Under the pieces are notes generated by a model, which saw only the letters and a program-made list of their open reading frames with translations, was not told the DNA's origin and searched no databases. A program made the translations under genes and the position numbers. A stretch of DNA of 64,000 nt. It comes from Candidatus Planktophila sp. (GTDB lineage: Bacteria > Actinomycetota > Actinomycetes > Nanopelagicales > Nanopelagicaceae). Below, piece by piece: positions 1 to 29,459 of this stretch (positions are counted from its first letter, which is position 1; each line of letters begins with the position of its first letter). The stretch spans positions 4,925 through 68,924 of the forward strand of contig JBBAMX010000008.1 in NCBI GenBank assembly GCA_040402335.1, written 5' to 3'.

Positions 1-739
1 TCTGGACTTTACTCAAGGTTTGTTTGCGAGTTGAACCCATTGACTGTGCGGCTTCAACCGGAGATTGATTGAGATTTCGAATTGCATGCGAAGTAATTCG
101 AATACAGATCGGAATTGCATAAATCATCGTCGCAATCGTTGCCGAGGCGGCTCCAATCATAAAAACAAGTGCGATCGGTGCCATGTAAACGAGCGTTGGT
201 AAAATCTGAGCTAAATCTAGAAATGGCGTCAGAACTTTCAAGGTTCGATCAGAGAGTCCGGCCCAAATACCTAAGGGGATTCCAATCGCTAATGAAAGAA
301 GTACTGCTGCCAATGTCATCGCTATGGAGTCCATAGTGAACTGCCACATTCCAAGTGCGCCACATCCAAGCAAAAGCGAGACTGAAAGCAAAGCGGTGCG
401 CCATGTACTTGTTGCAAATACTAAAAGAGCGACAAGCCCTACTACCCCGAGCCAACCGATTATTGGGATGACGGAGTTAGGTCCAGGAATTGCGATAAGC
501 GCTCGGATGGCCTGCACAAAGCCATCGATAGCGCCACGGATTGGATTAAAGAAATAGACAAAGGCCGTGCTTGTGGTGCGGTTACCGCGCATAGCCAGCG
601 CCCGATCTCCCACGAAAGATGTGAAGGCGGTATTTTCATAAGTAGCTATCTGTAAAGTATTTCTACCTTGGAAAACTCGGGCAGCGAGAATCCATACCGC
701 CACTGATCCCAAAAGCAGATAGGGCTTGCGAATATGCAT
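1..739 (-). CDS. proW: Glycine betaine/proline-type ABC transporter permease (partial, runs off left edge)
   Basis: Not in the ORF track. Manual translation from ATG 739 (TGATG overlap with the ATPase stop) gives MHIRKPY...hydrophobic helices...LAIGIPLGIWAG...LPTLVY...VEAAQSMGSTRKQTLSKVQ, which includes the EAA loop. Confidence 0.85.
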   Translation of the reverse strand, partial: MHIRKPYLLLGSVAVWILAARVFQGRNTLQIATYENTAFTSFVGDRALAMRGNRTTSTAFVYFFNPIRGAIDGFVQAIRALIAIPGPNSVIPIIGWLGVVGLVALLVFATSTWRTALLSVSLLLGCGALGMWQFTMDSIAMTLAAVLLSLAIGIPLGIWAGLSDRTLKVLTPFLDLAQILPTLVYMAPIALVFMIGAASATIATMIYAIPICIRITSHAIRNLNQSPVEAAQSMGSTRKQTLSKVQ

Positions 740-1767
740 CAACTGACCCCGGAGATGATGCGCAACACATCATCACTTGAGACAACTCCTAAGGCTTTAC
801 CGTTATCGCTCACCCTGATTGGGCGATGATCGGCAATAATCAAACTGCAGGCATCACGGATAATCATGTCGGCCGGAAGTTCAGGGCCATCTATAGCTTC
901 GCCAGATTTCGGTGCGCGGGCAAGATATCTAAGCGTTAACACATGAGATTTCGCGATATCGCGAACGAAGTTCGCTACATACTCATCGGCTGGATGAGCT
1001 ACTAAATCCTCAGGAGTTCCAATTTGAACAATGGCACCATCGCGCATGATCGCGATGCGATCTCCTACTTTTACCGCCTCAGATAGATCATGAGTAATAA
1101 AGACCATGGTCTTACCTAGTTCGTGGTGTAAGCGAATTACCTCTTGTTGCATATCGCGTCGAATCAGCGGATCAAGTGCGCTGAAGGGCTCGTCTAAGAA
1201 AAGAACCTGAGGGTCAACGGCGAGTGCTCTAGCTAAACCGACGCGTTGTTGCATGCCGCCCGAAAGCTGTTCGGGATATGCATTTGAATAGCCTTGTAGC
1301 CCCACGAGTTCGATTACTTCATTGGCACGTGCATGACGCTCGGTTTTTTTGACGCCATTGATTTCGAGTGAGTAAGCGATATTGTCGATTACTTTTCGAT
1401 GCGGAAGTAAACCAAAATGCTGAAATACCATGGAGAAACGGGTTTTACGAAGTTCGCGAAGGCGTGCATTATTTACCTTCAATATATCTTCGCCCTCAAA
1501 TGTTAATGAGCCGGCGGTTGGCTCGATGAGTCGGGTCATGCAGCGAACTAAAGTTGATTTTCCGGAGCCCGATAAACCCATGACAACAAAGACCTCGCCA
1601 GGGGCGACATCAAATGAGACATCACGAACTGCGATGGTATTTCCTGTTTGTGCCCGCAGCTCCGATCGCGTTAACTCAGCGAGCCGACTACCGATTACTG
1701 ATGCAGGCTCGGTACCAAAGACTTTCCAGAGGTTTTTAACGCAGATCATCGCCGCATTATCACTCAC
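739..1767 (-). CDS. proV: Quaternary-amine (betaine/proline/choline) ABC transporter ATP-binding protein
   Basis: Walker [41 protein letters not shown], and the ProV/OpuAA-type N-terminus (VKNLWKVFG). Confidence 0.9.
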
Positions 1768-1779
1768 TGAATTATCCCC

Positions 1780-3252
1780 TTACTGGTGATCTGGAAACCA
1801 TCCTGATCGACTAGGTGCATTGTTGGTCCAAATGTGTTTGATTTCAAGGTACTCACCCAGGCCATGCTCACCTAATTCGCGGCCAATGCCCGACTGCTTA
1901 TACCCACCCCACTCAGCGCCCGGGCGATATGGCCCAAAGTCATTGACCCAGATAGTTCCGTGGCGCAGGGCGCTTGCAACGCGTGCCGCTTTTTCACTAT
2001 CCCCGCTCCATAACCCGCCCGAGAGACCGAAGATCGTGTCATTTGCGATAGCGATCGCCTGCGCCTCGCTATCGAAGATCTCCACCGTCATGACCGGACC
2101 AAAGGACTCGTCTTGAACGCAGGACATGGCGCTCACACAGTTATCTAAAACCGTAGGCAGGTAGTACCAGCCCTGTGAGTGGACGGGATCGGCGCTGCGA
2201 GCGCCTCCGATTAAGAGCGTTGCGCCCTCTGCCAACGCTTTTTCAACGTAGCCGATAACGCTATTTAAATGGCTTTGGCTAATCAGTGGTCCACTCTGTG
2301 CGCTTTCATCGCCACCTAAGCGAATCTGACCTACGCGCCGGACAATCTCGGCCACCACTCGCCCATGAATTGAGCGTTCAACGATTAAACGAGTTCCGGC
2401 CGAGCAGACTTGACCTGAGTGAAGGAAGGCAGCGGTCACTGCGTTATCAATCGCCGAATCCAAATCTGCATCGGCGAAGATGATATGTGGATTTTTGCCA
2501 CCCAGCTCGAGTGCTAACTTCTTAACGGTATCGGCTGCGGCCCGCATGATCGTCTGACCAGTGAGTAAGCCCCCAGTAAAGGAGATTAAGTCGACTCGAG
2601 GATCGTTAATTAATGGAGTTCCAACAACTGCACCTGGTCCCAAAATTAAATTAGCAACACCCGGTGGCGTTCCAGCCTCTTCAATAATTGCAAACAAGGC
2701 GATTGCACTTTGAGGTGTTAACTCACTTGGTTTAACAATGAACGAGCAGCCAGCTACAAGTGCAGGAGCTATCTTCCAAGCGATCTGCAAGAGCGGATAG
2801 TTCCACGGTCCAATTAGGGCTGCAACACCCAACGGCTCACGGACGATTCTGCTCTTTACGTGCGCTAATCCAACGTCGAGGCTTCGTTCACTCTCTCTGC
2901 CACCTAGCGCTGCGAAGTGCCTAAAGGTTGCAACCACATCGGCTACGTCATAAATAGATTCAATTAAACGCTTACCAGTATCTTCACTCTCTTTGCTCGC
3001 AATCTCATCTGCGTCGCGCTCTAAGAGATCGGCGATTCGACCAACTAAGGCGCTTCGCTCGGTGAAACTCCACGCTGTAAAGATGCCGGAGTCAAAGCTG
3101 GCTCGCGCCGCAGCGATCGCATCGCCCACATCAGCGGGCGTGGCCTGTGAAACTACAGCAACGGTTCGCTGATCGTGTGGGCTATGAATCTCATGGGTTT
3201 GAGCATCCGATGCCGAGCGCCACTTGCCATCGATATAGAGTGTTGCAACCAT
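1780..3252 (-). CDS. NAD-dependent aldehyde dehydrogenase (betaine-aldehyde dehydrogenase-like)
   Basis: PWNYP, FTGG, catalytic LELGGKNP and GQVCSAG, ESFGPV. Substrate is inferred from context only. Confidence 0.85.
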   Translation of the reverse strand: MVATLYIDGKWRSASDAQTHEIHSPHDQRTVAVVSQATPADVGDAIAAARASFDSGIFTAWSFTERSALVGRIADLLERDADEIASKESEDTGKRLIESIYDVADVVATFRHFAALGGRESERSLDVGLAHVKSRIVREPLGVAALIGPWNYPLLQIAWKIAPALVAGCSFIVKPSELTPQSAIALFAIIEEAGTPPGVANLILGPGAVVGTPLINDPRVDLISFTGGLLTGQTIMRAAADTVKKLALELGGKNPHIIFADADLDSAIDNAVTAAFLHSGQVCSAGTRLIVERSIHGRVVAEIVRRVGQIRLGGDESAQSGPLISQSHLNSVIGYVEKALAEGATLLIGGARSADPVHSQGWYYLPTVLDNCVSAMSCVQDESFGPVMTVEIFDSEAQAIAIANDTIFGLSGGLWSGDSEKAARVASALRHGTIWVNDFGPYRPGAEWGGYKQSGIGRELGEHGLGEYLEIKHIWTNNAPSRSGWFPDHQ

Positions 3253-3259
3253 AATAGAT

Positions 3260-4696
3260 TTAATCTAGTTGGCTTTTACGCATTGCAACAAACTCATCTA
3301 GCTCTTTGAGCATCGAAGCATCGATCTCTGGGGCGACGTAATCCTCCAGTTTTTTCTTGTAGATATCGGCGGCACGCGCCTTCGTATCTTTGCCGCCCAA
3401 GCGGGTCCAACGCTCGAAGTTATCGCTATTTGTTAAGAAGGGACGGTAGAAACAGTCACGAAAACGCTCCATTGTGTGCGCCGCGCCTAAGAAGTGACCG
3501 CCATGGCCGACCTCTAGGTGGGCATCAAAGGCGAGTGATTCGATATTAAACTCAAGTGGAGTGAACTCGGTCATCAGTGATTGCAGAATTTCGATATCTA
3601 AAACAAACTTTTCATAACATGAGACCAGTCCACCTTCGAGCCAGCCGGCGGTATGCATCACCCAGTTTGTGCCAGATAAGAACGTCGGCATCATTGTCAT
3701 CATTGTTTGATATGCCGACTGGGCATCAACGGTCTGCGAAGAGTTTAAGCCGCCGCCGCCACGAAAGGGAAGGTTAAAGCTGCGTGCAATCTGACCGGTG
3801 CACAGCAGTCCAATTCCAGATTCTGGTGTTCCAAACTGTGGTGATCCTGACTGCATATCGATGTTGGAGAGAAAAGAACCGAAGACAATCGGGCATCCAG
3901 GATTAAGTGTCTGTGCCAGTGCAATTCCAGTTAAGGCCTCGGCGATCTGCTGCGCCAAAGTAGCTGGGATGGTGACCGGGCTCATCGCGCCCATAAGTAA
4001 AAATGGTGTGACAACAACTGGCTGGCCAGCTAAAACATATTCGCGCAATGAGTCCAACATGCGATCATCCCAGCGCAGTGGTGAGTTGCAGTTTACGAGA
4101 GAGATTAGCGCAGGAGTTTCAACGATAGCTTCGCGGCCACCGTGAATGATCTCCGCCATTCGAATTACATCTTTAGCGTTCTCGGCCGTAACCACGTTGC
4201 CCATAAAAAACTTATCGGTGAGGGTGGCGGCGGCATATGCCATATCCAAATGGCGTGAATCAAGCGAGAGATCATTCGGTTCGCAGACGACACCACCGAC
4301 GCTATCGAGTGCATCAAATGACTGCGCTAGCTTGCAAAAGTTTTCATAATCCTTAAATGTTGCATCGCGGCGAATATCGCCTTCGCGAACAAATGGTGGA
4401 CCGTAAACTCCACCAAAGACCATCGAGTTCCCACCGATATGAACATTGTTCTTGGGGTTGCGAGCGCGCAGATTAAACTCACTCGGAGCCAATGCGCACT
4501 GCTTTAATATCCAGTCGGGATCGAACTTAACGTTCTCACCTTCTACGCTCTGTCCGGCATCACGCAGGACATCGATCGCCCATGGTGACATGAACTCAAT
4601 GCCTATCTCAGAGACGATGCGTCGCCACCCTAGAGTTAAGGTCGCCATGGACTCTTGGCTCAAAATCTCGTATCGGGGCATTCGATTTTCAAACAT
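3260..4696 (-). CDS. mttB: MttB-superfamily (trimethylamine methyltransferase family) methyltransferase, pyrrolysine-free (MtgB-like)
   Basis: Family motifs GPPFV, CEPND, NCNSPLRWD, TPFLLMGAMSPVT, GTPES, HTAGWLEGGL, GPGGHF-like GHGGHFLG. No in-frame TAG. SD AAGGAG at 4703-4708. Confidence 0.9.
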   Translation of the reverse strand: MFENRMPRYEILSQESMATLTLGWRRIVSEIGIEFMSPWAIDVLRDAGQSVEGENVKFDPDWILKQCALAPSEFNLRARNPKNNVHIGGNSMVFGGVYGPPFVREGDIRRDATFKDYENFCKLAQSFDALDSVGGVVCEPNDLSLDSRHLDMAYAAATLTDKFFMGNVVTAENAKDVIRMAEIIHGGREAIVETPALISLVNCNSPLRWDDRMLDSLREYVLAGQPVVVTPFLLMGAMSPVTIPATLAQQIAEALTGIALAQTLNPGCPIVFGSFLSNIDMQSGSPQFGTPESGIGLLCTGQIARSFNLPFRGGGGLNSSQTVDAQSAYQTMMTMMPTFLSGTNWVMHTAGWLEGGLVSCYEKFVLDIEILQSLMTEFTPLEFNIESLAFDAHLEVGHGGHFLGAAHTMERFRDCFYRPFLTNSDNFERWTRLGGKDTKARAADIYKKKLEDYVAPEIDASMLKELDEFVAMRKSQLD

Positions 4697-4753
4697 TTAT
4701 CGCTCCTTCGCGCCTATTGACCATTGGACTTACATGAGAATACCCTTAGATAG

Positions 4754-4783
4754 TGGAACAGTGGTTCCATATTATGGAACAGT
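4754..4783. promoter_or_regulatory. Overlapping inverted repeats, putative IclR operator in the divergent mttB/iclR promoter
   Basis: TGGAAC-AGTG-GTTCCA (4754-4769) overlaps GTTCCAT-ATT-ATGGAAC (4764-4780). TGGAACAGT is directly repeated (4754, 4775). Confidence 0.7.
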
Positions 4784-4831
4784 CGTAAAAGCAGTTTCGG
4801 GGCCGATATCGAGCAGAGATGGGGTGTCTAT

Positions 4832-5593
4832 ATGAGCGAGTTAGTAAATGGAACCCAGGCGATAGATCGAGCCAGTGCACTCCTTATCAACGTCCTTGAA
4901 TCATCGACTCCCCCATTATTATCTGAACTATCTCGTACTCATGAGATTCCTAAGAGTACAACATCTCGAATGTTAAGCGCCCTCGAACGCCAAGGTCTTG
5001 TCCGCCGAGATCGCAACGGCGCCTTTATCGCCGGTGATGTTTTAACCCAGTTTGCTCGCTCGCAAAATCATGACTCCGTGCTGGTCGCGCGTATGCACTC
5101 AGTCTTGGAAAAATTAGCAATGAGTACAGGTGAGACGGCCAACTTAGCGGTCTCCAGCAATAGTCAGATGAAGTTAATCGATCAAGTAGATGGTCACTAT
5201 CTATTGGGAGCGACAAACTGGATTGGAAAAGTAATTCCATTTCACGCATCGGCCCTTGGCAAGGTTCTTCTTGCATATGGCGCGGCGACAATTCCACTTG
5301 GAAAATTAGAAAAACTTACTTCTAAGACAATTACTGCGCGCCCCCGCTTATTAAGCGAACTCGAGAGCGTAAGAAAAAAAGGCTACGCGATTATCGTTGA
5401 CGAGCTTGAGGAAGGGCTCGTGGCGGTAGCTGCACCTATTCGTGAAGATGATGGCCGAGTGGTTGGTGCGATTTCAATCTCTGGACCATCGCCACGATTA
5501 ACACAGCGAGATTTAGCAAAGATCGGCGACGTTATTATCCAAGAGATTCACTCACTCCAAAGCCTCAATGAAGGAAAGATAGGTGCAGCATGA
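4832..5593 (+). CDS. IclR-family transcriptional regulator
   Basis: N-terminal HTH (QAIDRA...LSELS...PKSTTSRMLSAL) and C-terminal HASALGKVLLA and GYAI..DELEEGL.AVAAPI motifs. Confidence 0.92.
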   Translation: MSELVNGTQAIDRASALLINVLESSTPPLLSELSRTHEIPKSTTSRMLSALERQGLVRRDRNGAFIAGDVLTQFARSQNHDSVLVARMHSVLEKLAMSTGETANLAVSSNSQMKLIDQVDGHYLLGATNWIGKVIPFHASALGKVLLAYGAATIPLGKLEKLTSKTITARPRLLSELESVRKKGYAIIVDELEEGLVAVAAPIREDDGRVVGAISISGPSPRLTQRDLAKIGDVIIQEIHSLQSLNEGKIGAA

Positions 5594-6255
5594 CTCACGA
5601 TGACATCATCAAGGCGCTCTTTGACGAGACGTTGGTTGGAAACGCTCCCGCGGTTTTAGCGTTAACTAATCAAGGTATCGCCGATGGCATGACTCCCAGC
5701 ACAATTCTCTTCGATGCGCTTATTCCTGCGCTAGAAGAGGTTGGTGCCCGCTTTGAACGCGGCGATTTCTTCGTCCCAGAGATGCTGATCTCTGGCAAGG
5801 CGATGTCTGGTGCGCTGGCTGTACTGCGACCACTGCTTGCCGAGACCGGGGCTGAGACCGTTGGAACGTATTTAATGGGAACCGTAAAGGGCGATGTTCA
5901 CGATATCGGCAAGAACCTTGTCAACATCATGCTCGAGGGTGCTGGCTTTAACGTGATCGATCTCGGCGTCCAAGTGGCTCCGGAAAAATTCATCGCCGGA
6001 ATCCTGGAACACAAGCCCGATATCGTGGGAATGTCGGCATTCCTCACAACAACAATGCCGATGTTTAAAGTCAATATTCATGAAATTACTAAGGCTGGCC
6101 TGCGGGATGAAGTCTTTATCATGGTTGGTGGTGCGCCGGTAACACAGGAGTATGCCGATGTAGTTGGCGCCGATGGCTTTGCCGCCGATGCTTCGACTGC
6201 CGTTCGCATCGCTAAAAATCTAATCGCCAAGAAACGCGCAACGGTCTCCGTATAA
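5590..6255 (+). CDS. Stand-alone corrinoid (B12-binding) protein, MttC/MtbC/MetH-cobalamin-domain type
   Basis: Cap domain (FVPEMLISGKAM) plus the B12 motif GTVKGDVHDIGKNLV, SAFLTTT and VGGAPVTQEYAD. Confidence 0.93.
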   Translation: MTHDDIIKALFDETLVGNAPAVLALTNQGIADGMTPSTILFDALIPALEEVGARFERGDFFVPEMLISGKAMSGALAVLRPLLAETGAETVGTYLMGTVKGDVHDIGKNLVNIMLEGAGFNVIDLGVQVAPEKFIAGILEHKPDIVGMSAFLTTTMPMFKVNIHEITKAGLRDEVFIMVGGAPVTQEYADVVGADGFAADASTAVRIAKNLIAKKRATVSV

Positions 6256-6260
6256 GCCCT

Positions 6261-6641
6261 ATGTTAAAAAAACTGCTCCCCTTTATTGAGCATGCGGTAA
6301 AAAAACCCGTATGGGACTGTCGTATGTGCGGTCAATGTGTTTTGCATTCAACGGGTATGACTTGTCCCATGACTTGTCCGAAGACTTTGCGCAATGGGCC
6401 CTGTGGTGGAGTGCGCGAGAATGGAAACTGCGAAGTAAAACCTGAGATGCAGTGCATCTGGGTCAAAGCTTATGATCGAACAATCTCTCTTCCCTTACCT
6501 AAAGTGTGGAAGGAGCATTACAACGATCTCCGCCCACCTGTTGATATGCAGCTCCAAGGTAGCTCTTCGTGGATTAATTTAGTGACTAAGCGCGATCAGC
6601 AAACTCCTGATGGATGGTCGATCGAAAGTAGCGAGCATTGA
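6261..6641 (+). CDS. MetV-like Cys-rich protein (methylene-THF reductase C-terminal domain family)
   Basis: Eight Cys in CRMCGQC..TCPMTCPKTLRNGPCGG...NCEV...QCIW, overlapping the metF start. Confidence 0.8.
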   Translation: MLKKLLPFIEHAVKKPVWDCRMCGQCVLHSTGMTCPMTCPKTLRNGPCGGVRENGNCEVKPEMQCIWVKAYDRTISLPLPKVWKEHYNDLRPPVDMQLQGSSSWINLVTKRDQQTPDGWSIESSEH

Positions 6642-7537
6642 TATCCGTGCTCAAAGAAAAACTAGAGAGTACTAAAGATTTAGTCTTTACCGCCGAGTTC
6701 CCATCGATAGATGGTGGTGGAATGGAGTTCGTTGAAAAAAACGCTGCCCGCCTAGCTCCCTGGTTTGATGCGGTAAATGCCACCGATAACGCCGCCGCTC
6801 ACGCCCACGCATCAAACACCACAACGGCTGTTGCAATGAAGATGCATGGCTTAGAACCCATTATGCAGATTGTCTGCCGAGATAAAAACCGTATTGCAGT
6901 CCAGTCCGACATGATGGGCGCGGCGCTTCATGGGATTCCAAATATCTCTCTCCTAACAGGTGATGATGTAACTGCAGGAGATGAGCCCGAAGCCCGGAGA
7001 GTCTTTGACATCGATAGCGCTCAAGCTATTAACATCGCCCGAATAATGACGACCGGTAGTTATCTATCGGGTCGAAAGATAAATCCCGCCCCCGATTTCT
7101 ACATTGGTGCCGTTGAAAATGCCTGTGCACCGCCCTTTGATTATCGAATAGCTCGGGCGTTAAAAAAATACCGAGCAGGTGCTAAGTTTTTACAACTTCA
7201 AATCTCTTACCATCCGGATCGCCTTGAGAGCTTTTGTAGGGGTGTGGCCGAAGTCGCCCCAGATTTAAAACTTATTCCAACGATTGTGCTTTTAAAGTCG
7301 GCAAAGTCGCTCAACTTCATCAATGATAAGGTTCCGGGAATCGACGTACCTTCCAATACCTTGGCCCGGATAAACGCCGCGAGTGATGAAAAAAGTGAGA
7401 TTTATAATTTAACGTTGGAGCTAGCCCAACACGCACTCTCACTCCCAGGTGTTCGTGGTTTGCATGTAACTGATTTTCGACATGATGACTCGCTCGATAC
7501 TTTAATGAACGACCTAGGCAGAACACCGAAACGATAG
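6638..7537 (+). CDS. metF: Methylenetetrahydrofolate reductase
   Basis: TAEF, AVNATDN, CRDKNRIAVQSD, LTGD, KKYRAGAKFLQLQ. Confidence 0.85.
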   Translation: MISVLKEKLESTKDLVFTAEFPSIDGGGMEFVEKNAARLAPWFDAVNATDNAAAHAHASNTTTAVAMKMHGLEPIMQIVCRDKNRIAVQSDMMGAALHGIPNISLLTGDDVTAGDEPEARRVFDIDSAQAINIARIMTTGSYLSGRKINPAPDFYIGAVENACAPPFDYRIARALKKYRAGAKFLQLQISYHPDRLESFCRGVAEVAPDLKLIPTIVLLKSAKSLNFINDKVPGIDVPSNTLARINAASDEKSEIYNLTLELAQHALSLPGVRGLHVTDFRHDDSLDTLMNDLGRTPKR

Positions 7538-7547
7538 GGGTACAACT

Positions 7548-8432
7548 TTGCATACAGTTCTCTCTTCTCCTGGCCAAACGGTCACGATCGGTCACGATCA
7601 GCCCTTTTGTATTATCGGAGAGCGCATCAACCCCACGGGACGGAAAAAATTCCAACTCCAACTGCGAGAAGGAAACCTGACCGCGATTGAAAAAGATGTA
7701 GCCGATCAAATTGCAGGTGGTGCAAACGTGCTCGATGTAAATATGGGTGTTCCACTCACCGATGAACCCGCACTTTTATCTAATGCGATTAAGTTAATTC
7801 AATCTATTACCGATATGCCGATCTGCATCGACTCCTCAGTTATCGAGGCGCTACAGGCTGGACTTGAGGCCTATCAAGGCAAGGCGCTCGTGAACAGTGT
7901 TACGGGCGAGGATGAGCGAATGGAGCTCGTTCTGCCGCTCATTAAAAAACATGGTGCGGCGATAATCGCCCTGCCTAACGATGAGACTGGAATTCCAGCG
8001 ACGGCCGCCGAGCGGATGATTATCACTGAAAAAATAGTTAGAGCCGTTGAAAAACACGGGATTGCCTTAGAGGATTTAGTAATCGATCCCTTAGCAATGA
8101 CCGTTGGCGCCGATCCAGAGGCCGTTAAAATTACCTTAGAGACAATCTATTTAATCCGTGAAAAATGGGGATTGAATATGACCCTAGGTGCATCAAATAT
8201 CTCATTCGGGCTTCCTTACCGCCACGCTCTTAACGCCGCATTCCTGCCGGCGGCGATGTCACATGGATTAACTAGTGCGGTCATGGATGCGCGGACACCG
8301 CTCATCGTTGAATCAGTGCGTGCAGCCGATCTGCTTCTTGGACTAGATCCGTGGGGAGCCACTTGGATTACCCGCTTTAGAGCGATGGAGGCGGCGAAGT
8401 TAGCCGCGGCTGTGAATGGAACTGGTGAATAG
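7548..8432 (+). CDS. Pterin-binding methyltetrahydrofolate:corrinoid methyltransferase (MetH pterin domain / AcsE-like)
   Basis: IIGERINPTGRKK, LDVNMG, ICIDSS, LVNSVTGE, IDPLAMTVG, GASNISFGLP. TTG start. Confidence 0.9.
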   Translation: MHTVLSSPGQTVTIGHDQPFCIIGERINPTGRKKFQLQLREGNLTAIEKDVADQIAGGANVLDVNMGVPLTDEPALLSNAIKLIQSITDMPICIDSSVIEALQAGLEAYQGKALVNSVTGEDERMELVLPLIKKHGAAIIALPNDETGIPATAAERMIITEKIVRAVEKHGIALEDLVIDPLAMTVGADPEAVKITLETIYLIREKWGLNMTLGASNISFGLPYRHALNAAFLPAAMSHGLTSAVMDARTPLIVESVRAADLLLGLDPWGATWITRFRAMEAAKLAAAVNGTGE

Positions 8433-17505: not shown

Positions 17506-17507
17506 TT

Positions 17508-18467: not shown

Positions 18468-19222
18468 TAGAAGGCCCCAATCGATTTAAGCACTTCGACT
18501 AATGCGGGTACCGCATCCGTGCCTTTTCCTAAAATCTCAGCGCCTTTATCTTTCGAAGGAGCCAGACTCAACTTAACCTTCTCAAGCTTTGGAAGCCGAG
18601 ACTCAGCCTGTTTTACCTCTACGGTTTTTTTGCGTGCCTGCATGCGCCCTGGTACTGAGGGATAGCGTGGAATATTTAAGCCATCGCGAACCGTAATGAT
18701 CGCAGGTAAGGGTGCTTCATAGTGTTCGCGACCATCTGAAACAACTCGTTCACAGTTCACGACACCATTTTCTACTCTCATCGACTTTACATTAGTAATA
18801 ATCGGGCGATTAAGTGCGTGAGCGATGCGGATATGAATCTGGTACCCAGCGCTATCGGCCGATTCTGCACCGAAAATAATCAAATCAAATTTAGTCGCAT
18901 CGGCATTTATCGCTTCAACTAAGGCGCTAGCGGTTCCTTGGGGGTCCCACTCCTGGCCATCGGTCTCAATCAAAACCGCCCTCGTTGCACCGATTGCCAA
19001 CTGCGAACGAAGCTGCTCCTCTGCATCACTTGGCCCAAGTGTCAGTAGCGTCAGAGTGCCGCCCATCTGTTCGACTAGTTGAACCCCGGCTTCAACGGCA
19101 TTTTCCTCATGGGGACTGATTCCAAAACCTAGATGTTTCGTTTCAATATCGCGAGAATCGGGCGTTAAAATCAGCGCTCCACCAGCTAATGGAACGCGCT
19201 TGAGGCAGACAAGTACATCCAT
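18467..19222 (-). CDS. etfB: Electron transfer flavoprotein beta subunit
   Basis: VLVCLKRVP, NAVEAG, LAIGATRA, PRYPSV. Coupled to etfA. Confidence 0.9.
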   Translation of the reverse strand: MDVLVCLKRVPLAGGALILTPDSRDIETKHLGFGISPHEENAVEAGVQLVEQMGGTLTLLTLGPSDAEEQLRSQLAIGATRAVLIETDGQEWDPQGTASALVEAINADATKFDLIIFGAESADSAGYQIHIRIAHALNRPIITNVKSMRVENGVVNCERVVSDGREHYEAPLPAIITVRDGLNIPRYPSVPGRMQARKKTVEVKQAESRLPKLEKVKLSLAPSKDKGAEILGKGTDAVPALVEVLKSIGAF

Positions 19223-21774: not shown

Positions 21775-22437
21775 TTATAAAGATTTACGTATCGATGTTT
21801 CAAAACCCTCTACATGATTGCGCATTGCATTGCCAGCGGCATTGGCGTCACTGCTTGCAATAGCCTCCAGTAAGACGAGATGCTCAATAATCGCTTCAGC
21901 CAAACCTTTCACGCGATCCAAAGCTAAGAACCAGATGCGCAGTGCGTGAGCATAATAATTATCGAGGGCCGCTTCTAAAAACTCATTGTGCGTGCATTGA
22001 TAGATGTGGTGATGAATCCTTTGATCTAATCCAATCAAGGTGGCCATATCTACATCGCCTTTAATCGCTTTAATTTCGGTGATGAGGGCTTTAGTAATGA
22101 TGTGATCTGCATTCGTTGAACGTTCGGCGGCAAGCTGTGCCGCTTTTATCTCAAGCACAGCTCGGATCTCAGATAACGCGGAGAGGTTTTGAACATCTAC
22201 CGTGGAGACAAACATGCCGCGCCGAGGGTAGACCTCAACTAGCTTCTCGTTAGCCAGTGAGCGCAGAGCTTCGCGGATCGGCGTTCGGCCAAAGCCAAGC
22301 TTCACCATGAGATCGCTCTCACTGATCAGTGATCCCGGAATCAACTCCAGGGTGATGATCATCGAGCGAATGCGGCTATACGCCTCCTCCGATAGCGAGC
22401 TGCTCTCTCTGGAGAGAATGTGGATAACCTGGCTCAT
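21775..22437 (-). CDS. GntR-family (FCD) transcriptional regulator
   Basis: wHTH SESDL..LGFGRTPIREAL and an FCD domain (DQRIHHHI, EHLVLLEAI). Confidence 0.92.
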   Translation of the reverse strand: MSQVIHILSRESSSLSEEAYSRIRSMIITLELIPGSLISESDLMVKLGFGRTPIREALRSLANEKLVEVYPRRGMFVSTVDVQNLSALSEIRAVLEIKAAQLAAERSTNADHIITKALITEIKAIKGDVDMATLIGLDQRIHHHIYQCTHNEFLEAALDNYYAHALRIWFLALDRVKGLAEAIIEHLVLLEAIASSDANAAGNAMRNHVEGFETSIRKSL

Positions 22438-22445
22438 GAGGGTGA

Positions 22446-22455
22446 TGATATATCA
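22446..22455. promoter_or_regulatory. Palindrome TGATATATCA, putative GntR operator overlapping a -10 element
   Basis: Perfect 10-bp palindrome 9 bp upstream of the gntR ATG. The minus-strand TATCAT (22445-22450) lies 7 nt before the ATG. Confidence 0.6.
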
Positions 22456-22489
22456 GTCTTATCGATATTGATACACAGCGAGGCGGGTT

Positions 22490-23224: not shown

Positions 23225-23246
23225 GCCCTAACCATACAATGCCATT

Positions 23247-23492
23247 GTGGAGAACAGTGTGGAACTACGATTCTTTGCATCGGCACGGGCCGCAGCAGGA
23301 GTGGATCAAGCCTATTTCGCCAGTGCAACCCTAACTTCAATCTTGGCGCTGGCCTGCATTGATAAGCCGTTACTTAACCAGGTCGTTGTGCAGTGCAGTT
23401 TCCTACTTGATGGCGTGGTGGTACATGATCAGAGTATTTTAGTAAATAATGGAAGCGTGGTCGATGTTCTCCCACGCTTTGCTGGCGGCTAG
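23247..23492 (+). CDS. moaD: Molybdopterin synthase sulfur carrier (MoaD/ThiS)
   Basis: LRFFASARAAAG and C-terminal VDVLPRFAGG. Confidence 0.9.
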   Translation: MENSVELRFFASARAAAGVDQAYFASATLTSILALACIDKPLLNQVVVQCSFLLDGVVVHDQSILVNNGSVVDVLPRFAGG

Positions 23493-23515
23493 TATTTATC
23501 GACAAGAGGAGAGAA

Positions 23516-23938
23516 TCAGGCAGTATTGACCCACTCATCACTACCATCTTTAAAAATCTGGTGCTTCCAAATTGGTAACTTTTCTTTAATCTCATTGACT
23601 AACAGTGAGCAGATTTCAAAGGCGGCATCTCGATGCGTTGAGGACACGGCCACTGCAAAGGCCGTTTCACCGATAGCAATCTCACCAAAACGATGAGATA
23701 CGGCGACTTTTAACGCGCCAGAGCCTGCAATAACCCTTTGGCTAATCTTTACTATTTCATCAGCGGCCATTGGATGAATCTCATATCGAAGCGATGAGAC
23801 GTCTCTGCCCTTATCAATATTGCGCACATCCCCAGTAAAACTCACAACCGCACCGCAACTTTGATCACTAACAAGTGCGATTAAATCGGCTATTGAGATC
23901 ACATCACTGGTGACGTCGGCGCGCATAATCTCTGGCAT
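23516..23938 (-). CDS. moaE: Molybdopterin synthase catalytic subunit
   Basis: CGAVVSFTGDVRN, LRYE, SHRFG, HRDAAF, PIWKHQ. Confidence 0.93.
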   Translation of the reverse strand: MPEIMRADVTSDVISIADLIALVSDQSCGAVVSFTGDVRNIDKGRDVSSLRYEIHPMAADEIVKISQRVIAGSGALKVAVSHRFGEIAIGETAFAVAVSSTHRDAAFEICSLLVNEIKEKLPIWKHQIFKDGSDEWVNTA

Positions 23939-24417
23939 TAGTGATCGAGCCCATCTAGCTGGTCCAAAATATGTCCAGCTAACCTATCGATAATAACTAA
24001 GCCATCCCTGACCGCACCCGGTGATCCAGGGAGATTAATAATCAATGACTTGGCGGTGATGCCGGCGATACCGCGAGTTAAATCAGAGGTTGGAACCTTA
24101 TCCCGCGAGTAAGCGCGAAGTGCTTCGGGGATCCCTGGAAGTAGTTTTTCAATGAGCGCAGCAGTTGCCTCAGGTGTTACATCCATCGGTGAGATACCCG
24201 TTCCCCCAGTTGTCACAATCAAGCGACAACCTTGTCTTAACGCCTTACTGATTTCACTTCTAATGGCTTCGATATCATCGCCAACAATTATCGTAGATTC
24301 AATACTAAAGCCAAGTGCAGTTAATCCATCTCTTAAAATCGCACCACTTGAATCGGGGTAGATTCCTTGTGAGGCTCGATTGCTTGCAGTAATAATCGCG
24401 GCACTACGTACGATCAC
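23938..24417 (-). CDS. moaB: MogA/MoaB molybdopterin adenylyltransferase
   Basis: DSSG, TTGGTGISPMDVTPEA, NLPGSPGAVRDG. Start reassigned to GTG 24417 (GTGA overlap with the moaC stop). Confidence 0.85.
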   Translation of the reverse strand: MIVRSAAIITASNRASQGIYPDSSGAILRDGLTALGFSIESTIIVGDDIEAIRSEISKALRQGCRLIVTTGGTGISPMDVTPEATAALIEKLLPGIPEALRAYSRDKVPTSDLTRGIAGITAKSLIINLPGSPGAVRDGLVIIDRLAGHILDQLDGLDH

Positions 24418-24887
24418 CTGCGTTTCCAATCACCGTTCTTACCACCCGACTTTGCGTCAAGTTGTACATCGCTTATTGAGGCAAAAGGATCCAGCGCCTT
24501 CACCATATCTATAATAGTTAGAGCCGCCAAAGTAACCGCGGTTAAAGCCTCCATTTCAACTCCGGTTCGATCAGATGTTGAGATTTGAGCAGAAATGGAG
24601 ACACCCGAATCGGTAATTACTAAATCGATATTTATTTTATTTATGGCTATCGGATGACATAGCGGAATTAACTCACTTGTCTTCTTTGCTCCCATAATTC
24701 CAGCGATCCGAGCCGTCGCTAGTACATCGCCCTTGGGTACATCTCCATCACGCAATAACGCGACGACGTGGCTAGACAAGTTCACTCGCGCAGATGTATC
24801 GGCCGTTCTGTGGGTAGTTTCTCGTCCACTTACATCGACCATATGGGCCGCTCCGGCCTCATTTAAATGTGTAAATCCATCGTTCAT
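24414..24887 (-). CDS. moaC: Cyclic pyranopterin monophosphate synthase
   Basis: AHMVDVS, KGDVLATARIAGI, LIPLCHP, TGVEMEAL, KSGGKNG. Confidence 0.96.
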   Translation of the reverse strand: MNDGFTHLNEAGAAHMVDVSGRETTHRTADTSARVNLSSHVVALLRDGDVPKGDVLATARIAGIMGAKKTSELIPLCHPIAINKINIDLVITDSGVSISAQISTSDRTGVEMEALTAVTLAALTIIDMVKALDPFASISDVQLDAKSGGKNGDWKRR

Positions 24888-24905
24888 GCCGATTACTCTA
24901 ATTCT

Positions 24906-26075
24906 TTACGGTAGCGATAGCCAACGCACTTTTTCACCAGCGGGCGTTCGCTCCTGTGTCACAACGGCAAAACCAGTTGAGAATGCCAGTCCACGCAGCA
25001 TGGCAGAGCCCAAATACTCCCCCACTTCAAACTGAGATTTTTCTATTGTGCCGATTATTAATCGAGTAGATCGAGGTGGGGCAGTCAGATCCATACGTGT
25101 GACAACCTCGTCGAGTTCTTGCCGCTCTTGTCCCAACATAGCAGCGATGACTGGCGCGCCTAATGAGAGTAGGGCGACGATCGCCGACTGCGGATTACCA
25201 GGCAGACCAAGAATTGAGCAGTTTGGAAGTTGCGCTAAGAGCATAGGGTGGCCGGGGCGAACGGCGACCGTATCTACAAGTAGTTCGGCATCGATTTGCG
25301 CCAGCGCATCGTGCAGGAAATCTCGAGGACCTTGAGCAGTTCCACCTGTAGTGATCACAAGATCGGCATGTGCGCAGGCGTCCTTGAGCCCCTGAACGAC
25401 AAGGGCGATCTCATCGCCAACATAGCGCGTACTCACTACCTCACCGCCCAACTTGGCGATCCATCCAGGTAGCTGTGGTCCTAATGAGTCACGGACAAGA
25501 CCTGAATCAGGAATCCCGTTTAATTGAATCTCATCACCAAATAAAATAATAGCGATTCGAGGTTTTCTGACAACACTTATCTCATCTAAGCCAGCCGCAG
25601 ATAATAAGCCAAGAGTACCGGGGTTAAGTTTAGTTCCACCTTTAACTAGGAGTTCGTTAACTTTGCACTCATAGGCCGCCGGACGAATCTCTTGATTCTC
25701 AACTACTTCTCCTTCAAGAGTATCTCCGATGAGCTTGGCCAACTCCCAACGAATCACACCGAAAACACCCGAAGGAATTACCGCACCGGTTGCGATTCCA
25801 ACGGCGCAGCCTGGCTCTAATTTTTCCTTCATAGGTGAGCCCGCTTTTACTTCGCCAACAATCCTCCAAGGGCCTTTGCCCGATACGGCATACCCATCCA
25901 TGGCAGATGTTGGATATGTTGGTAGATCACACAGCGCGAAGGCATCGGTTGCCAACGTTCGATCGAGCCCCTGAATCAGTGGGATCACCTCATGAGGTAA
26001 AACCTTAGAACTCGCTGCTGCAACTGCCCGGGCAGCATCCCAACTTCCTTCAACTAATGCGCTCATAGTGGTCAA
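24906..26075 (-). CDS. moeA: Molybdopterin molybdenumtransferase
   Basis: SAMDGYAV, IATGAVIP, ITTGG, VRPGHP, GLPGNP. Confidence 0.93.
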   Translation of the reverse strand: MTTMSALVEGSWDAARAVAAASSKVLPHEVIPLIQGLDRTLATDAFALCDLPTYPTSAMDGYAVSGKGPWRIVGEVKAGSPMKEKLEPGCAVGIATGAVIPSGVFGVIRWELAKLIGDTLEGEVVENQEIRPAAYECKVNELLVKGGTKLNPGTLGLLSAAGLDEISVVRKPRIAIILFGDEIQLNGIPDSGLVRDSLGPQLPGWIAKLGGEVVSTRYVGDEIALVVQGLKDACAHADLVITTGGTAQGPRDFLHDALAQIDAELLVDTVAVRPGHPMLLAQLPNCSILGLPGNPQSAIVALLSLGAPVIAAMLGQERQELDEVVTRMDLTAPPRSTRLIIGTIEKSQFEVGEYLGSAMLRGLAFSTGFAVVTQERTPAGEKVRWLSLP

Positions 26076-26665
26076 TTATCCTTCATGGGAATAAGAAAAG
26101 CGATTGCGCGCTCAAGATCTACGGCGGTATCGATATCGATAAGAGATTTTGAACTCTGCGCATCGATTGCTATCTCATGAACTTTCAAATGCGCCAGTAG
26201 CTCTCGCATCGATTTTCCCTGTGGTTCTCCTAAAATCCTAAAAGCTCGTTGTAAAGCACTCATGCGATAAACGGCTGCGAATGGTTGCGCAAACTCTTGC
26301 GCATCTACATACATCACTGACTCATCATCGGCCTCGAGAGAGTTTAAGAGTAAGGGAGTTACTGCCATCACAAATGGCATATCGGTGGCTATCAAAATAA
26401 CTAAATTGCTAGTGCAAAGTTCAAGCCCCGCCTTAAATCCGGCGACCGGCCCCCCACCCGGTGGGGCCTCTTGGGTGCAGATGTAATGTGTAGTTTTAAT
26501 CATTGGATCGGCTCCAACTATTACTATCTCAAAATCTGGTGGAATTGAGGCGAGGATCCAACTGATCAAAGATTGACCAGCTAGCAATGCGCGTGATTTA
26601 TCGCTGCCAAAACGCTTGCTCGTACCACCGCTTAAGATGATGACGCTCGCGCTTTTACTTTGCAC
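26072..26665 (-). CDS. mobA: Molybdenum cofactor guanylyltransferase (NTP-transferase)
   Basis: ILSGGTSKRFGSDKS, GGPVAG, ATDMPF, DIDT. Start reassigned to GTG 26665, where the domain begins. Confidence 0.85.
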   Translation of the reverse strand: MQSKSASVIILSGGTSKRFGSDKSRALLAGQSLISWILASIPPDFEIVIVGADPMIKTTHYICTQEAPPGGGPVAGFKAGLELCTSNLVILIATDMPFVMAVTPLLLNSLEADDESVMYVDAQEFAQPFAAVYRMSALQRAFRILGEPQGKSMRELLAHLKVHEIAIDAQSSKSLIDIDTAVDLERAIAFLIPMKDN

Positions 26666-26683
26666 GTCACTAGGATACTGACT

Positions 26684-28240
26684 ATGGCATATGCACGGGG
26701 TGAGGCCAACGCCCTTGGCTGGCGCAATGTTGTTGAGTGTGAAGATGAAGAGCACAGCGGCCATAGCTTTCCACGTTCAAGTAATCCGCTGCTACTGCTG
26801 CACCATCTCTCGGATCTTCATGTCTGTGATGCGCAGTCCCCCACGCGTCCCGAGTATTTAGATCGATGGGCCGATCCAGATAGTCCTATCCGAGAACAAG
26901 TAGGCACCATCGGGACTTATCGTCCGCAGGCAATGTTGTCACCACATGTTGTAGAGGCGATGATCCAATCGCTTAATAAAATTACTCATGGTCCACTCTC
27001 TGGTCACGATATTAATGCGGCAATTATTACCGGTGATACAACTGATAACGCTCAACTCAATGAGCTCAACTGGTATTTAGCGCTCTTAGATGGTTTAGAT
27101 CTTCGCCCCGATTCAGGTGACTACCAAAGCTATGAGGGCGTTATAGATGATGGCGCCGATCACTACGACACTCGTTACTGGCACCCACACGGAACTCCAG
27201 GCGGTGAGCTAGATGATGATGCTCGCGCAAAGTATGGCTTTCCAGTTATCCCCAATCTTTTAAACTCTTGTCGTCAAGCATTTAAAGCTACCGGCCTTAA
27301 ATTTCCTTGGTATGCCGTGCATGGAAATCACGATGCGCTCCTGCAAGGTACGGTCGCACCACAATCGCAGATACAAAAGGAGATGATTGGTAACCGGCGA
27401 TACACCGAACTTCCTTCAAACATCTCTCTCCCCGAACTCCTTTCCAATTTTCAAGAGGTTGGTCCAGCCGCATTCCCGCCGGCCTTTGATGCCGCCTTTG
27501 TCGAAGTAACGGCCGACCTGACGCGCCGAGCCGTTGAACGTGGGGAGTTTGCCGCAATGCATTTGGCATCCCCAACGCTTCCCAAAGGCCATGGCTTCAA
27601 TCAAACGCACGTTGATGAAAAACATATGTACTACTCAACACAAATCGGAGCAGTCAAACTTATAGTCCTCGATAGTGTCAATCAATTTGGTGGATGGCAG
27701 GGCTCACTTGATATCGATCAGTTTAATTGGCTGGAAAAAGAGGTTGCAGACTCTGATCGGCCAGTAGTTCTGGCCTCCCATCATCCATTAAGCAAAATGT
27801 TTAATGGATACGCCCCAGTCGGAAGGCGTATCTGCGTCGAAGAGATTCAAACCATGCTTTTAAAATATCCAGGGGTGATCGCCTGGATCGCCGGCCATGA
27901 ACATCGCCATCATATTAAATGGATCGGTGCCGAAGTAGAGGTGCAAGGCTTTTGGCAGATTGAAACGGCATCACACGCCGATTGGCCACAGCAATCTCGA
28001 ACCATTGAAATTGTTCGAGATGAGATCGGAGATATTTACTTCGGCCTGAGCGTAATCGACCATGCAGGTGAGGCGGCCTTTGGGGATGCCAAAACTCCAC
28101 TCGAGTTAGCCGCCCTTTCTCGGATAGTCAGTGGAAATATCTGGCAAAAGCGCCCAGAACTCGGCTCGACGCATGATGTCAACTGGTGGAGTGGGCGAGT
28201 AGAGGATAGAAATGTCGTGCTAAAAATCTCACGGCGTTAG
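26684..28240 (+). CDS. Actinobacterial metallophosphoesterase (TIGR03767-like)
   Basis: SDLHVCDAQSP, ITGDTTDN, VHGNHD, SHH, AGHEH motifs. Start reassigned to ATG 26684. Subfamily assignment is from memory. Confidence 0.75.
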   Translation: MAYARGEANALGWRNVVECEDEEHSGHSFPRSSNPLLLLHHLSDLHVCDAQSPTRPEYLDRWADPDSPIREQVGTIGTYRPQAMLSPHVVEAMIQSLNKITHGPLSGHDINAAIITGDTTDNAQLNELNWYLALLDGLDLRPDSGDYQSYEGVIDDGADHYDTRYWHPHGTPGGELDDDARAKYGFPVIPNLLNSCRQAFKATGLKFPWYAVHGNHDALLQGTVAPQSQIQKEMIGNRRYTELPSNISLPELLSNFQEVGPAAFPPAFDAAFVEVTADLTRRAVERGEFAAMHLASPTLPKGHGFNQTHVDEKHMYYSTQIGAVKLIVLDSVNQFGGWQGSLDIDQFNWLEKEVADSDRPVVLASHHPLSKMFNGYAPVGRRICVEEIQTMLLKYPGVIAWIAGHEHRHHIKWIGAEVEVQGFWQIETASHADWPQQSRTIEIVRDEIGDIYFGLSVIDHAGEAAFGDAKTPLELAALSRIVSGNIWQKRPELGSTHDVNWWSGRVEDRNVVLKISRR

Positions 28241-28272
28241 CTGCACATCAAGCTTCCTATAGAATTAAGCAC

Positions 28273-28569
28273 ATGAGCGAGTATCAGATAATGCGTTGGC
28301 GTGAAATTCCATCAATGGTGATCGCACGTGCCGGTGAGACAACAATAAAAGTGATGCTTGAATCACGCTTTCAAGAAGCTATAGATGAGGCCGCTATGCG
28401 ATTAGGCGCAATCGATGCCGATGCATATACCTCGGGCTGGAACCGCGGAGCCTGGATCGAATCAAGTGAGTCTCCAGATGTGCTTGCACCCCGCATAGCT
28501 AGCGAGTTAGAGGCAGAGTTGAGCGTTGAAAAACTAGAAGAGTTATTAAACAATTTAGGTGAAAAATAA
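28273..28569 (+). CDS. Small 'virulence factor' domain (PF13769-like) protein of unknown function
   Basis: WREIPSMV, RFQEAIDEAAM, DAYTSGW. Stop overlaps the next ATG. Confidence 0.7.
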   Translation: MSEYQIMRWREIPSMVIARAGETTIKVMLESRFQEAIDEAAMRLGAIDADAYTSGWNRGAWIESSESPDVLAPRIASELEAELSVEKLEELLNNLGEK

Positions 28570-29459
28570 TGTCAGCAATCTATGAGGCGTTAGAAAAGGC
28601 AACTCTGGTTTCAGATGGAGCGATGGGGACCATGCTGCAAGATCGCGGACTCACCGATGGTGGTGCGCCAGAGCTTTGGAACGTCGAAAAACCCGATCAA
28701 ATTGAGTCGGTCTTAGAGGGGTATGCAGCCGCTGGGGCACGATTCATTACAACTAATACTTTTGGTGGAACTCATGGTCGCTTGGCGATGCATGGTTTAG
28801 AAGATCGCCTATTTGAGCTCAATCAAGCCGGTGCCCAGATCGCACGAAGAGTTGCCGATCGACATCCTGGCTGTTTTGTTATGGGAGATATTGGACCCTC
28901 TGGAGATCTCATGGAGCCAATGGGCACAATGACTCTTGAAAGCGGTCAGGCGTTATTTGCCGAACAGATCCGCGCACTTGTCGCCGGCGGTGTCGATGCG
29001 ATTCTCATCGAGACAATGTCGGATTTAGGCGAGGTCGAGGCGGCAGTAAACGCCGCAAAAGAGGTCGCACCCGGAATGCCGATTATTACCATGATGAGTT
29101 TTGATACCAACCTTCGAACGATGATGGGAGTTAAGCCAGGAATGGCAGTTACTCATATCGCTGGGCTTGGAGTTCGCATCATCGGCGCAAACTGTGGTCG
29201 AGGTACGGATGAAATGTTAGTTTTAGCCGAAGAGATGGTTAAGGCTCGGCCAGAGGGAGTATTTATTATTACTCAATCAAATGCTGGTCTACCAAAACTC
29301 CAAGGTGATGAGTTCATTTACGACGGCACCCCCGCAGAGATGGCTAAACATGCAAATAAGATGAAAGAGATCGGCGTAAATATCATTGGCTCCTGTTGTG
29401 GATCGACACCAGCCCATACTGCCGCAATCGCCGCTGCCATTACGGCGACATCTGCTTAA
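28569..29459 (+). CDS. Stand-alone homocysteine S-methyltransferase domain (split MetH)
   Basis: VSDGAMGTML, PELWN, TNTFGG, GDIGPSG, IETMSD, Zn ligands GANCG and IIGSCCGST. No B12, pterin or AdoMet domains. Confidence 0.9.
   Translation: MSAIYEALEKATLVSDGAMGTMLQDRGLTDGGAPELWNVEKPDQIESVLEGYAAAGARFITTNTFGGTHGRLAMHGLEDRLFELNQAGAQIARRVADRHPGCFVMGDIGPSGDLMEPMGTMTLESGQALFAEQIRALVAGGVDAILIETMSDLGEVEAAVNAAKEVAPGMPIITMMSFDTNLRTMMGVKPGMAVTHIAGLGVRIIGANCGRGTDEMLVLAEEMVKARPEGVFIITQSNAGLPKLQGDEFIYDGTPAEMAKHANKMKEIGVNIIGSCCGSTPAHTAAIAAAITATSA

Follow-up and report, generated by a model that had tools for sequence, protein, structure and literature searches.

An aerobic, cobalamin-dependent glycine betaine demethylase that doubles as a split methionine synthase was shown in Ruegeria pomeroyi by proteomics and knock-outs (Mausz et al., PNAS 2025, PMC12478193). 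Its parts are MtgB (pfam06253), MtgC, MtgD, an adjacent additional MetF (MetF2), RamA, a DUF1638 protein and MtgE (PMC12478193). A split MetH had been reported earlier for Phaeobacter inhibens, as cited in that paper, and about 70% of the marine genomes that carry MtgBCD are without MetH (PMC12478193). We analyzed a 64,000-nucleotide window of a Candidatus Planktophila genome (NCBI GenBank assembly GCA_040402335.1; contig JBBAMX010000008.1, hereafter C8, positions 4925–68924) that begins with a gene cluster of this kind, and we consider it likely, from gene content and by analogy with R. pomeroyi, that the cluster is an actinobacterial (acI-A) version of the aerobic MtgBCDE system, joined to genes that would feed it and oxidize its products. 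The R. pomeroyi and P. inhibens MtgBCD(E) systems share with this locus the parts list, an aerobic host and the absence of MetH from most carriers. The clusters of SAR116, SAR324 and SUP05 resemble it in the co-location of dimethylglycine/sarcosine demethylation with tetrahydrofolate (THF)-linked one-carbon oxidation (PMC12478193). The differences from R. pomeroyi lie in the host, a freshwater streamlined actinobacterium as opposed to the marine bacteria, mainly Proteobacteria, covered by PMC12478193; in the arrangement, since the acI genes for choline dehydrogenase (BetA), a probable betaine-aldehyde dehydrogenase (BADH), an ATP-binding cassette (ABC) importer, FdhD, Fds, Fhs, the electron transfer flavoprotein (ETF) and molybdenum cofactor (Moco) synthesis lie nearly all within about 34 kb; in MetF, which in acI is of the MetVF type and the sole methylenetetrahydrofolate reductase (MTHFR); and in MtgB copy number, one in the acI genome versus up to seven in roseobacters.

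Two further systems are close. The anaerobe Desulfitobacterium hafniense has MtgB, MtgC and MtgA (PMC13080624); its MtgB aligns with the acI enzyme from end to end (about 390 bits), three of its substrate-binding residues (Y97, R312 and H348) have equivalents in acI, and both systems use a corrinoid protein and RamA-type activation. In D. hafniense the methyl group enters anaerobic energy metabolism, whereas in acI we propose that it is oxidized aerobically; the acI enzyme also differs in having G in place of F356 and an invariant W four residues upstream. The 'methylovory' of SAR11 (Pelagibacter), as described in PMC12478193, is likewise found in a streamlined, abundant, aerobic planktonic oligotroph, which draws additional energy from osmolyte methyl groups by way of THF, Fhs and formate dehydrogenase and whose supply of methionine is tied to betaine. 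According to the same source, SAR11 has a B12-independent Bhmt-type enzyme and no MtgC, unlike the corrinoid-dependent acI system.

Three tightly packed putative transcription units, with satellite genes, occupy the start of the window. Pfam and NCBIfam scans of all open reading frames (ORFs) of at least 90 amino acids (aa) in window positions 1–31173 recovered every gene that a preliminary description, made from the sequence alone, had listed for positions 1–29459, each where it had been placed apart from the start of ramA. The corrinoid and folate genes form the unit on the + strand. Its first gene encodes an IclR-family regulator (4832–5593; PF01614, PF09339) and is followed by mtgC (5590–6255; PF02310, PF02607), which encodes a 221-aa corrinoid (B12-binding) methyl-carrier protein and is the sole copy in the genome. 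Between mtgC and mtgD lie metV (6261–6641; PF12225, 92 bits), for the small subunit of a MetVF-type methylene-THF reductase, and metF of the same type (6638–7537; PF02219, 86 bits). The single-copy mtgD (7548–8432; PF00809) encodes a pterin-binding methyl-THF:corrinoid methyltransferase that scored 304 bits against NF005719/PRK07535, above the cut-off of 259. Next come ramA (8435–10339), whose product, a RACo/AcsV-like ATP-dependent corrinoid reductive activase, begins with a 2Fe-2S domain followed by the RACo linker, middle and C-terminal domains, and a gene for a DUF1638 protein (10336–10920; PF07796, 77 bits), a corrinoid reactivation accessory that is a named part of the aerobic Mtg system (PMC12478193). 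The order ProWV-ALDH-MttB / IclR-MtgC-MetV-MetF-MtgD-RamA-DUF1638, where ALDH is an aldehyde dehydrogenase and MttB the family to which MtgB belongs, recurs at about 50 species-representative loci of the Nanopelagicaceae with 80–98% MttB identity, which argues that the arrangement is not due to chance.

The preliminary description had placed the start of ramA at a GTG codon (8747), as the list of ORFs did; our comparisons moved it to about 8435. The in-frame stretch from 8435, in which ATG, GTG and TTG codons are all lacking, encodes the 2Fe-2S ferredoxin domain, and the extended protein aligns with positions 7–619 of the 632-position AcsV model (421 bits), compared with positions 125–619 (366 bits) for the shorter form. 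We compared the 5′ end of the gene (window 8429–8750) with loci L011, L012, L016, L017, L019, L020, L022, L023, L036, L038, L039, L042 and L045. In most Planktophila relatives an ATT or ATC codon, 2 nucleotides past the mtgD stop codon, heads the conserved RamA N-terminus I-S-K-K-E-L-D, and in a few relatives an ATG or GTG codon occupies this position. The pattern suggests that ramA probably has a conserved non-canonical ATT/ATC start, ATT in the present genome, and is translationally coupled to mtgD; standard gene callers would lose the Fe-S domain of RamA.

The unit on the – strand that diverges from iclR encodes an importer. It comprises mtgB (3260–4696), an ALDH gene (1780–3252; PF00171, 510 bits) whose product is probably a BetB-like betaine-aldehyde dehydrogenase, proV (739–1767; PF00005, 118.6 bits), for an ABC ATPase that carries a CBS domain at its C-terminus, and proW (PF00528). 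ProW had been noted in the window; only its N-terminal part lies there (2–742), and the full ORF, a 642-aa double-permease membrane protein with two BPD_transp_1 stretches, runs off the start of the window to C8:3738. The unit extends into the 4.9 kb upstream of the window, where the remainder of proW is accompanied on the same contig by proX, for an OpuAC-family lipoprotein, betA (C8:962–2635) and fdhD (C8:112–981), so that proX and fdhD, which the preliminary description had left to a search of the rest of the genome, were found immediately next to it. BetA exceeded the cut-offs of the choline dehydrogenase equivalog TIGR01810 (804 bits versus 732) and of NF002550 (847 versus 605). Choline is likely to enter the pathway, by way of BetA and the BADH-like ALDH.

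MtgB belongs to the pyrrolysine-free part of the MttB superfamily (PF06253, 602 bits), as the preliminary description had proposed. The gene is an unbroken 478-aa ORF with no internal stop codon. Among PDB entries it matched 4yyc at 410 bits and the D. hafniense MtgB structures 2qne and 9yce at about 390 bits, but the pyrrolysine-containing MttB 7xcl at only 126 bits, and its score of 251 bits against the pyrrolysine-type equivalog TIGR02369 is under the cut-off of 525. A pyrrolysine-type trimethylamine methyltransferase is ruled out by these observations.

On the basis of gene content and the R. pomeroyi model, the following route can be proposed. Choline and/or glycine betaine would be imported by the OpuA-type ABC importer ProX-ProW-ProV, and choline would be converted to glycine betaine by BetA and the BADH-like ALDH. 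MtgB would demethylate glycine betaine to dimethylglycine, loading one methyl group onto the Co(I) corrinoid of MtgC, from which MtgD would pass it to THF. Oxidation of methyl-THF to methylene-THF by MetVF would then be followed by oxidation to CO2 through FolD, Fhs and the NAD-linked FdsABG(D), yielding ATP and NADH; FdhD and the products of the neighboring Moco genes would mature the formate dehydrogenase. The folD gene, which the preliminary description had placed outside the window, was found elsewhere in the genome, and gcvT is also present. The remaining methyl groups would be converted to methylene-THF by two enzymes of the dimethylglycine dehydrogenase (DMGDH)/sarcosine dehydrogenase family, with electrons passing to EtfAB, and the oxidized corrinoid would be re-reduced by RamA and the DUF1638 protein. 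In a second role, methyl-MtgC would also feed MtgE for the methylation of homocysteine. The betaine-to-CO2 part of this scheme, already proposed in the preliminary description, is the same as the aerobic marine route of PMC12478193; for the present locus we infer it.

The oxidative steps are encoded mainly in the third unit, also on the – strand. It is headed by a gene for a GntR/FCD regulator (21775–22437; PF00392, PF07729), followed by one for a dimethylglycine/sarcosine dehydrogenase-family flavoenzyme (19222–21741) with DAO, FAO_M, GCV_T and GCV_T_C domains, whose putative ETF partner is encoded in the same operon by etfB (18467–19222) and etfA (17508–18467; PF00766/PF01012 for the pair). 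Then come fhs (15841–17505), for formate-tetrahydrofolate ligase (PF01268, 868 bits; NF010030, 891 bits versus a cut-off of 652), and the genes of an NAD-linked formate dehydrogenase: fdsG (15416–15841; PF01257), for a NuoE-like 2Fe-2S subunit, fdsB (13896–15419; PF01512, PF10589), for a NuoF-like subunit binding flavin mononucleotide and NAD, and fdsA (10906–13899; PF00384, PF01568, PF11390), for the catalytic subunit with a molybdenum bis-pyranopterin guanine dinucleotide cofactor and a fused C-terminal FdsD domain (TIGR01591, 867 bits versus 666). With FdhD, the parts of the FdsABG(D) enzyme are complete. Beyond a TauE gene, the bis-molybdopterin guanine dinucleotide (Moco) genes moaE, moaB/mog, moaC, moeA and mobA occupy 23516–26764 on the – strand (PF02391, PF00994, PF01967, PF03453, PF12804). 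An 81-aa ORF on the + strand (23247–23492), the product of which ends in GG, is a tentative moaD candidate; it gave no Pfam match at E ≤ 1e-5. In most relatives the DUF1638 gene is followed downstream by fdsA-fdsB, and in a few directly by fhs-etfAB. A second gene of the DMGDH/sarcosine dehydrogenase family (816 aa) lies at C3:42706–45210, divergent from a choline/ethanolamine-kinase-family gene (pair, C3:42706–46087).

Energy harvest from these methyl groups has to be weighed against an assimilatory explanation, in which the corrinoid genes constitute a housekeeping split methionine synthase, betaine methyl groups are only assimilated, Fhs and Fds serve an unrelated use of formate, and no significant energy is gained. 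The module must indeed be at least anabolic in a genome without MetH, MetE and canonical MetF; Fhs in most bacteria runs from formate to formyl-THF, and it is also present in 10 of the 203 Nanopelagicaceae genomes without MttB. On the other hand, fhs, etfAB and the DMGDH-family gene share one putative operon that adjoins the mtg operon, and the genome encodes a second DMGDH-family enzyme. Fhs was near-restricted to MttB carriers in the 280 genomes surveyed below (74 of 77 carriers versus 10 of 203 non-carriers; p = 2e-52), and fhs and mttB usually share a contig, 12–13 kb apart. Moreover, R. pomeroyi grows on betaine with the same gene set, and its MetF2 is strongly induced (PMC12478193). We therefore judge purely assimilatory use to be improbable and retain the combined oxidative and biosynthetic scheme.

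Several observations nevertheless weigh against that scheme or its parts. MtgC matched the NCBIfam model MtgC_2 best (196 bits versus a cut-off of 370), ahead of the model MtgC (156 bits versus 310), and thus scores below both curated MtgC models. The 421 bits of RamA against AcsV are below the cut-off of that model, the best NCBIfam match of the ALDH was TIGR01804 (BADH) at 532 bits, under its cut-off of 668, and that of MtgE was PRK07534 at 277 bits, under 338, followed by the N-terminal region of metH at 178 bits; PRK07534 represents the Bhmt type of Sinorhizobium meliloti, a type equated with MtgE by Mausz et al. (PMC12478193). The sole cobalamin-riboswitch-like match in the genome reached 31.1 bits, compared with a gathering score of 31.5. 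No canonical ETF:quinone oxidoreductase (PF05187) was found in the genome; the sole candidate for an ETF acceptor in a regular-expression and Pfam search was a membrane protein of 688 aa that combines a 4Fe-4S dicluster with two CCG domains (C3:24213–26300, + strand) and presumably resembles mycobacterial EtfD. An electron partner suited to MetVF in an aerobe is likewise presumed, as are the directions in which Fhs and Fds would work. Finally, the glycine betaine-binding residues of D. hafniense MtgB are Y97, R312, H348 and F356, and the substitution F356L raised its Michaelis constant several hundred-fold (PMC13080624). The position of F356 is occupied by glycine (G356) in the acI MtgB and in all 80 actinobacterial relatives compared, and the assignment of the substrate consequently rests mostly on gene context.

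The other three residues are kept (Y98, corresponding to Y97, R312 and H348) and are invariant among the 80 relatives, as is W352, four residues upstream of G356, which may compensate for the lost phenylalanine. The pocket alone is no proof of the substrate; glycine betaine is nonetheless likely, because the operon encodes choline dehydrogenase and a probable betaine-aldehyde dehydrogenase, which would convert choline to betaine, and an OpuA-type importer, and the adjacent operon encodes a DMGDH-family enzyme and ETF. Loss of F356 would also agree with a different quaternary amine, such as proline betaine, carnitine, gamma-butyrobetaine or choline, as would the occurrence of R312 and H348 in MttB-family enzymes for several acidic quaternary amines and the ability of OpuAC-type binding proteins often to take several betaines. 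We consider this unlikely, given that choline dehydrogenase, which exceeds its equivalog cut-off, and the BADH-like ALDH, both encoded in the operon itself, would produce glycine betaine, that the adjoining DMGDH-family enzyme would consume the product of glycine betaine demethylation, that there is a single MttB copy per genome, and that the HTAGWLEGGL stretch of MtgB matches the HxAGWLEGGL motif of PDB 4yyc.

The preliminary description's catabolic reading is kept here, but it had missed both choline as the likely entry substrate and a probable second function of the same modules, the synthesis of methionine. The part of the split methionine synthase that binds homocysteine is a separate protein, a homocysteine S-methyltransferase encoded by mtgE (28569–29459, + strand; PF02574, 228 bits). 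A phmmer comparison of the window proteins with all ORFs of the genome showed that MtgB, MtgC, MtgD, MetF, MetV, RamA, the DUF1638 protein and Fhs are each single copy. The genome has no MetH-like paralogue by phmmer, no PF02965 match and no B12-binding ORF of MetH size, and MetE (PF01717) was absent from 25 of 25 Planktophila genomes tested. The MetF of the island is the only PF02219 (MTHFR) match in this genome, as it is the sole MTHFR in three closed relatives; canonical MetF (about 310 bits), found in 8 of 8 non-carriers tested, is missing here. Given the absence of MetH, MetE and canonical MetF, we read MtgC/MtgD/MtgE with MetVF as the only route of methionine synthesis, and the island is thus probably the only methionine synthase of the cell as well as a methyl-oxidation pathway.

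The distribution of these genes across the family agrees with such a replacement. The preliminary description had called for a survey of relatives, and we carried it out in 280 species genomes of the Nanopelagicaceae, each at least 85% complete. MttB was present in 77 (27.5%), belonging to 6 of 17 genera, and the MetH activation domain in 214. The two tended to exclude each other, with 56 genomes carrying MttB and lacking MetH, 193 showing the opposite, 21 carrying both and 10 carrying neither (Fisher p = 7e-31). Within Planktophila, 38 of 39 MttB carriers lacked MetH and 76 of 77 non-carriers had it. A search for B12-binding domains gave the same division: carriers encode an MtgC of 227–236 aa and no ORF of MetH size, and non-carriers a MetH of 1170–1250 aa and no MtgC. 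MtgE orthologues (75–100% identity) occurred only in MttB carriers, whereas the best match in non-carriers was the N-terminal domain of the 1170–1250-aa MetH, at 36–39% identity. The 21 carriers that retain MetH are all 16 carriers of genus g28, whose genomes are larger (1.7–2.1 Mb), together with G201, G084, G085, G120 and G145, and G201, which keeps MetH, has no stand-alone MtgE. Genomes with both proteins look like intermediates in the replacement of MetH by Mtg. As far as can be told, these family-wide counts, namely prevalence, replacement of MetH and MetF, and linkage of Fhs, are new.

A further suggestion, which we put forward tentatively and regard as rather doubtful, is that the most reduced Planktophila (the present genome, G156, G248 and G256) are conditional methionine auxotrophs dependent on external B12 and quaternary amines. 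In such cells, from which MetH, MetE and canonical MetF have all disappeared, the methyl group of methionine would be supplied only through methyl-MtgC, charged either by MtgB with a methyl group of choline or glycine betaine or from methyl-THF made by MetVF running in reverse, and the suggestion presupposes that the reductive activity of MetVF is poor in an aerobe.

The host is an aerobic, streamlined actinobacterium of the acI-A group (Candidatus Planktophila), and the contig is an authentic part of its genome, in line with the acI-like, probably aerobic host that the preliminary description had deduced. The genome, of 1.43 Mb and 48% guanine-plus-cytosine (GC), is a metagenome-assembled genome (MAG) that is 99.5% complete; it contains two genes for subunit I of heme-copper oxidase (COX1), and the host was read as aerobic on this ground. 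The closest MttB loci in species-representative genomes (98–80% identity) are from Candidatus Planktophila and other Nanopelagicaceae MAGs. Elsewhere in the window are the core genes gltX, phoH, dnaJ, hrcA, lepA and valS and those for RNase E/G and a penicillin-binding protein. Assembly into 29 contigs gives some ground for supposing that this contig was mis-binned, or that the cluster was recently acquired from a foreign source and does not function in this host. We find this hardly credible, because GC content stays even along the window and equals the genome mean, core genes lie on the same contig, and congeners assembled into a single contig (G156, G161, G248 and G256) have the same genes with the same spacing, from which we concluded that the contig is authentic; furthermore, the nearest relatives of MtgB are all from Actinomycetes and all ORFs of the cluster are intact. 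A contaminant contig or an anaerobic host was ruled out by the Planktophila relatives, the core genes on the contig and the two COX1 genes.

Expression of the operons is probably controlled by the IclR and GntR proteins. The spacer between the divergent mtgB and iclR genes contains a perfect 17-bp palindrome, GTTCCATATTATGGAAC (4764–4780), composed of GTTCCATA-T-TATGGAAC. It is unique in the window and was matched in none of 100 shuffled sequences, and the exact pattern recurs at the corresponding position of 21 related loci, the most distant of which has 70% MtgB identity. We regard it as a candidate IclR operator. An Rfam search of the window returned two tRNAs only, and no riboswitch.

The preliminary description had left B12 uptake to a search of the remaining genome, and the outcome was mixed: candidate genes were found on contig C20, but the riboswitch match next to them falls 0.4 bits under the gathering score. 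At C20:16815–20782 the riboswitch-like element lies upstream of genes for a secreted protein, a CbiQ-type T component of an energy-coupling factor (ECF) transporter, a fused double ATPase and an S-component-like protein, and these ECF genes are a candidate B12 importer. Kang et al. (2017) reported B12 auxotrophy and a riboswitch-controlled ECF module in all four acI genomes that they compared (PMC5301498).

Next to mtgE, and overlapping its start, is a gene for a 98-aa protein of the PF13769 'virulence factor' family (28273–28569, + strand; 50.5 bits). The pair is kept in three relatives (L092–L094). The PF13769 protein may be an accessory of the homocysteine module that has so far gone undescribed. 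The pair is flanked by genes for a 526-aa metallophosphoesterase (26660–28240; paralogue at C3:30698–32299) and a 265-aa type I phosphodiesterase-family protein (29460–30257); that these might free choline from phosphocholine or glycerophosphocholine is pure speculation.

Energy harvest from methyl groups by an acI-like freshwater lineage was, for the preliminary description, not known to be a described trait. Our literature searches, the coverage of which was incomplete, found no paper tying acI, Planktophila or Nanopelagicales to MttB, betaine demethylation, choline or a split methionine synthase, but the aerobic mechanism itself was demonstrated in 2025 (PMC12478193). The mechanism is thus known from marine bacteria, and what is new here is the host. 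Parts of the surrounding gene set had been seen before: of the four acI genomes of Kang et al. (PMC5301498), only that of the acI-A7 strain IMCC19121 was recorded as having a formate dehydrogenase, Moco biosynthesis genes and an ABC transporter for glycine betaine/proline. The searched passages of that description do not contain the word methyltransferase and make no link to a corrinoid demethylase or to methionine synthesis.

In lakes, no bacteria are usually more abundant than those of the acI lineage (Nanopelagicaceae), and work continues on what they use as carbon and energy sources and on which vitamins they depend. If the proposed system operates in about a quarter of the species of this family, phytoplankton osmolytes would be a defined source of energy and methyl groups for them, the B12 demand of acI would span catabolism and methionine synthesis, and the replacement of MetH by Mtg would be a clear gene substitution during genome streamlining. 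The marine finding of 2025 would thereby be extended to fresh water and to the Actinomycetota. The prediction should be testable in congeners that carry the cluster on a single contig, some of which are perhaps cultured, and in the cultured acI-A7 strain, which has the associated traits. Should the most reduced Planktophila also prove to be conditional methionine auxotrophs, they would offer a freshwater parallel to the dependence of SAR11 on betaine and dimethylsulfoniopropionate, which would provide a possible reason for their difficult cultivation and for their link to phytoplankton.

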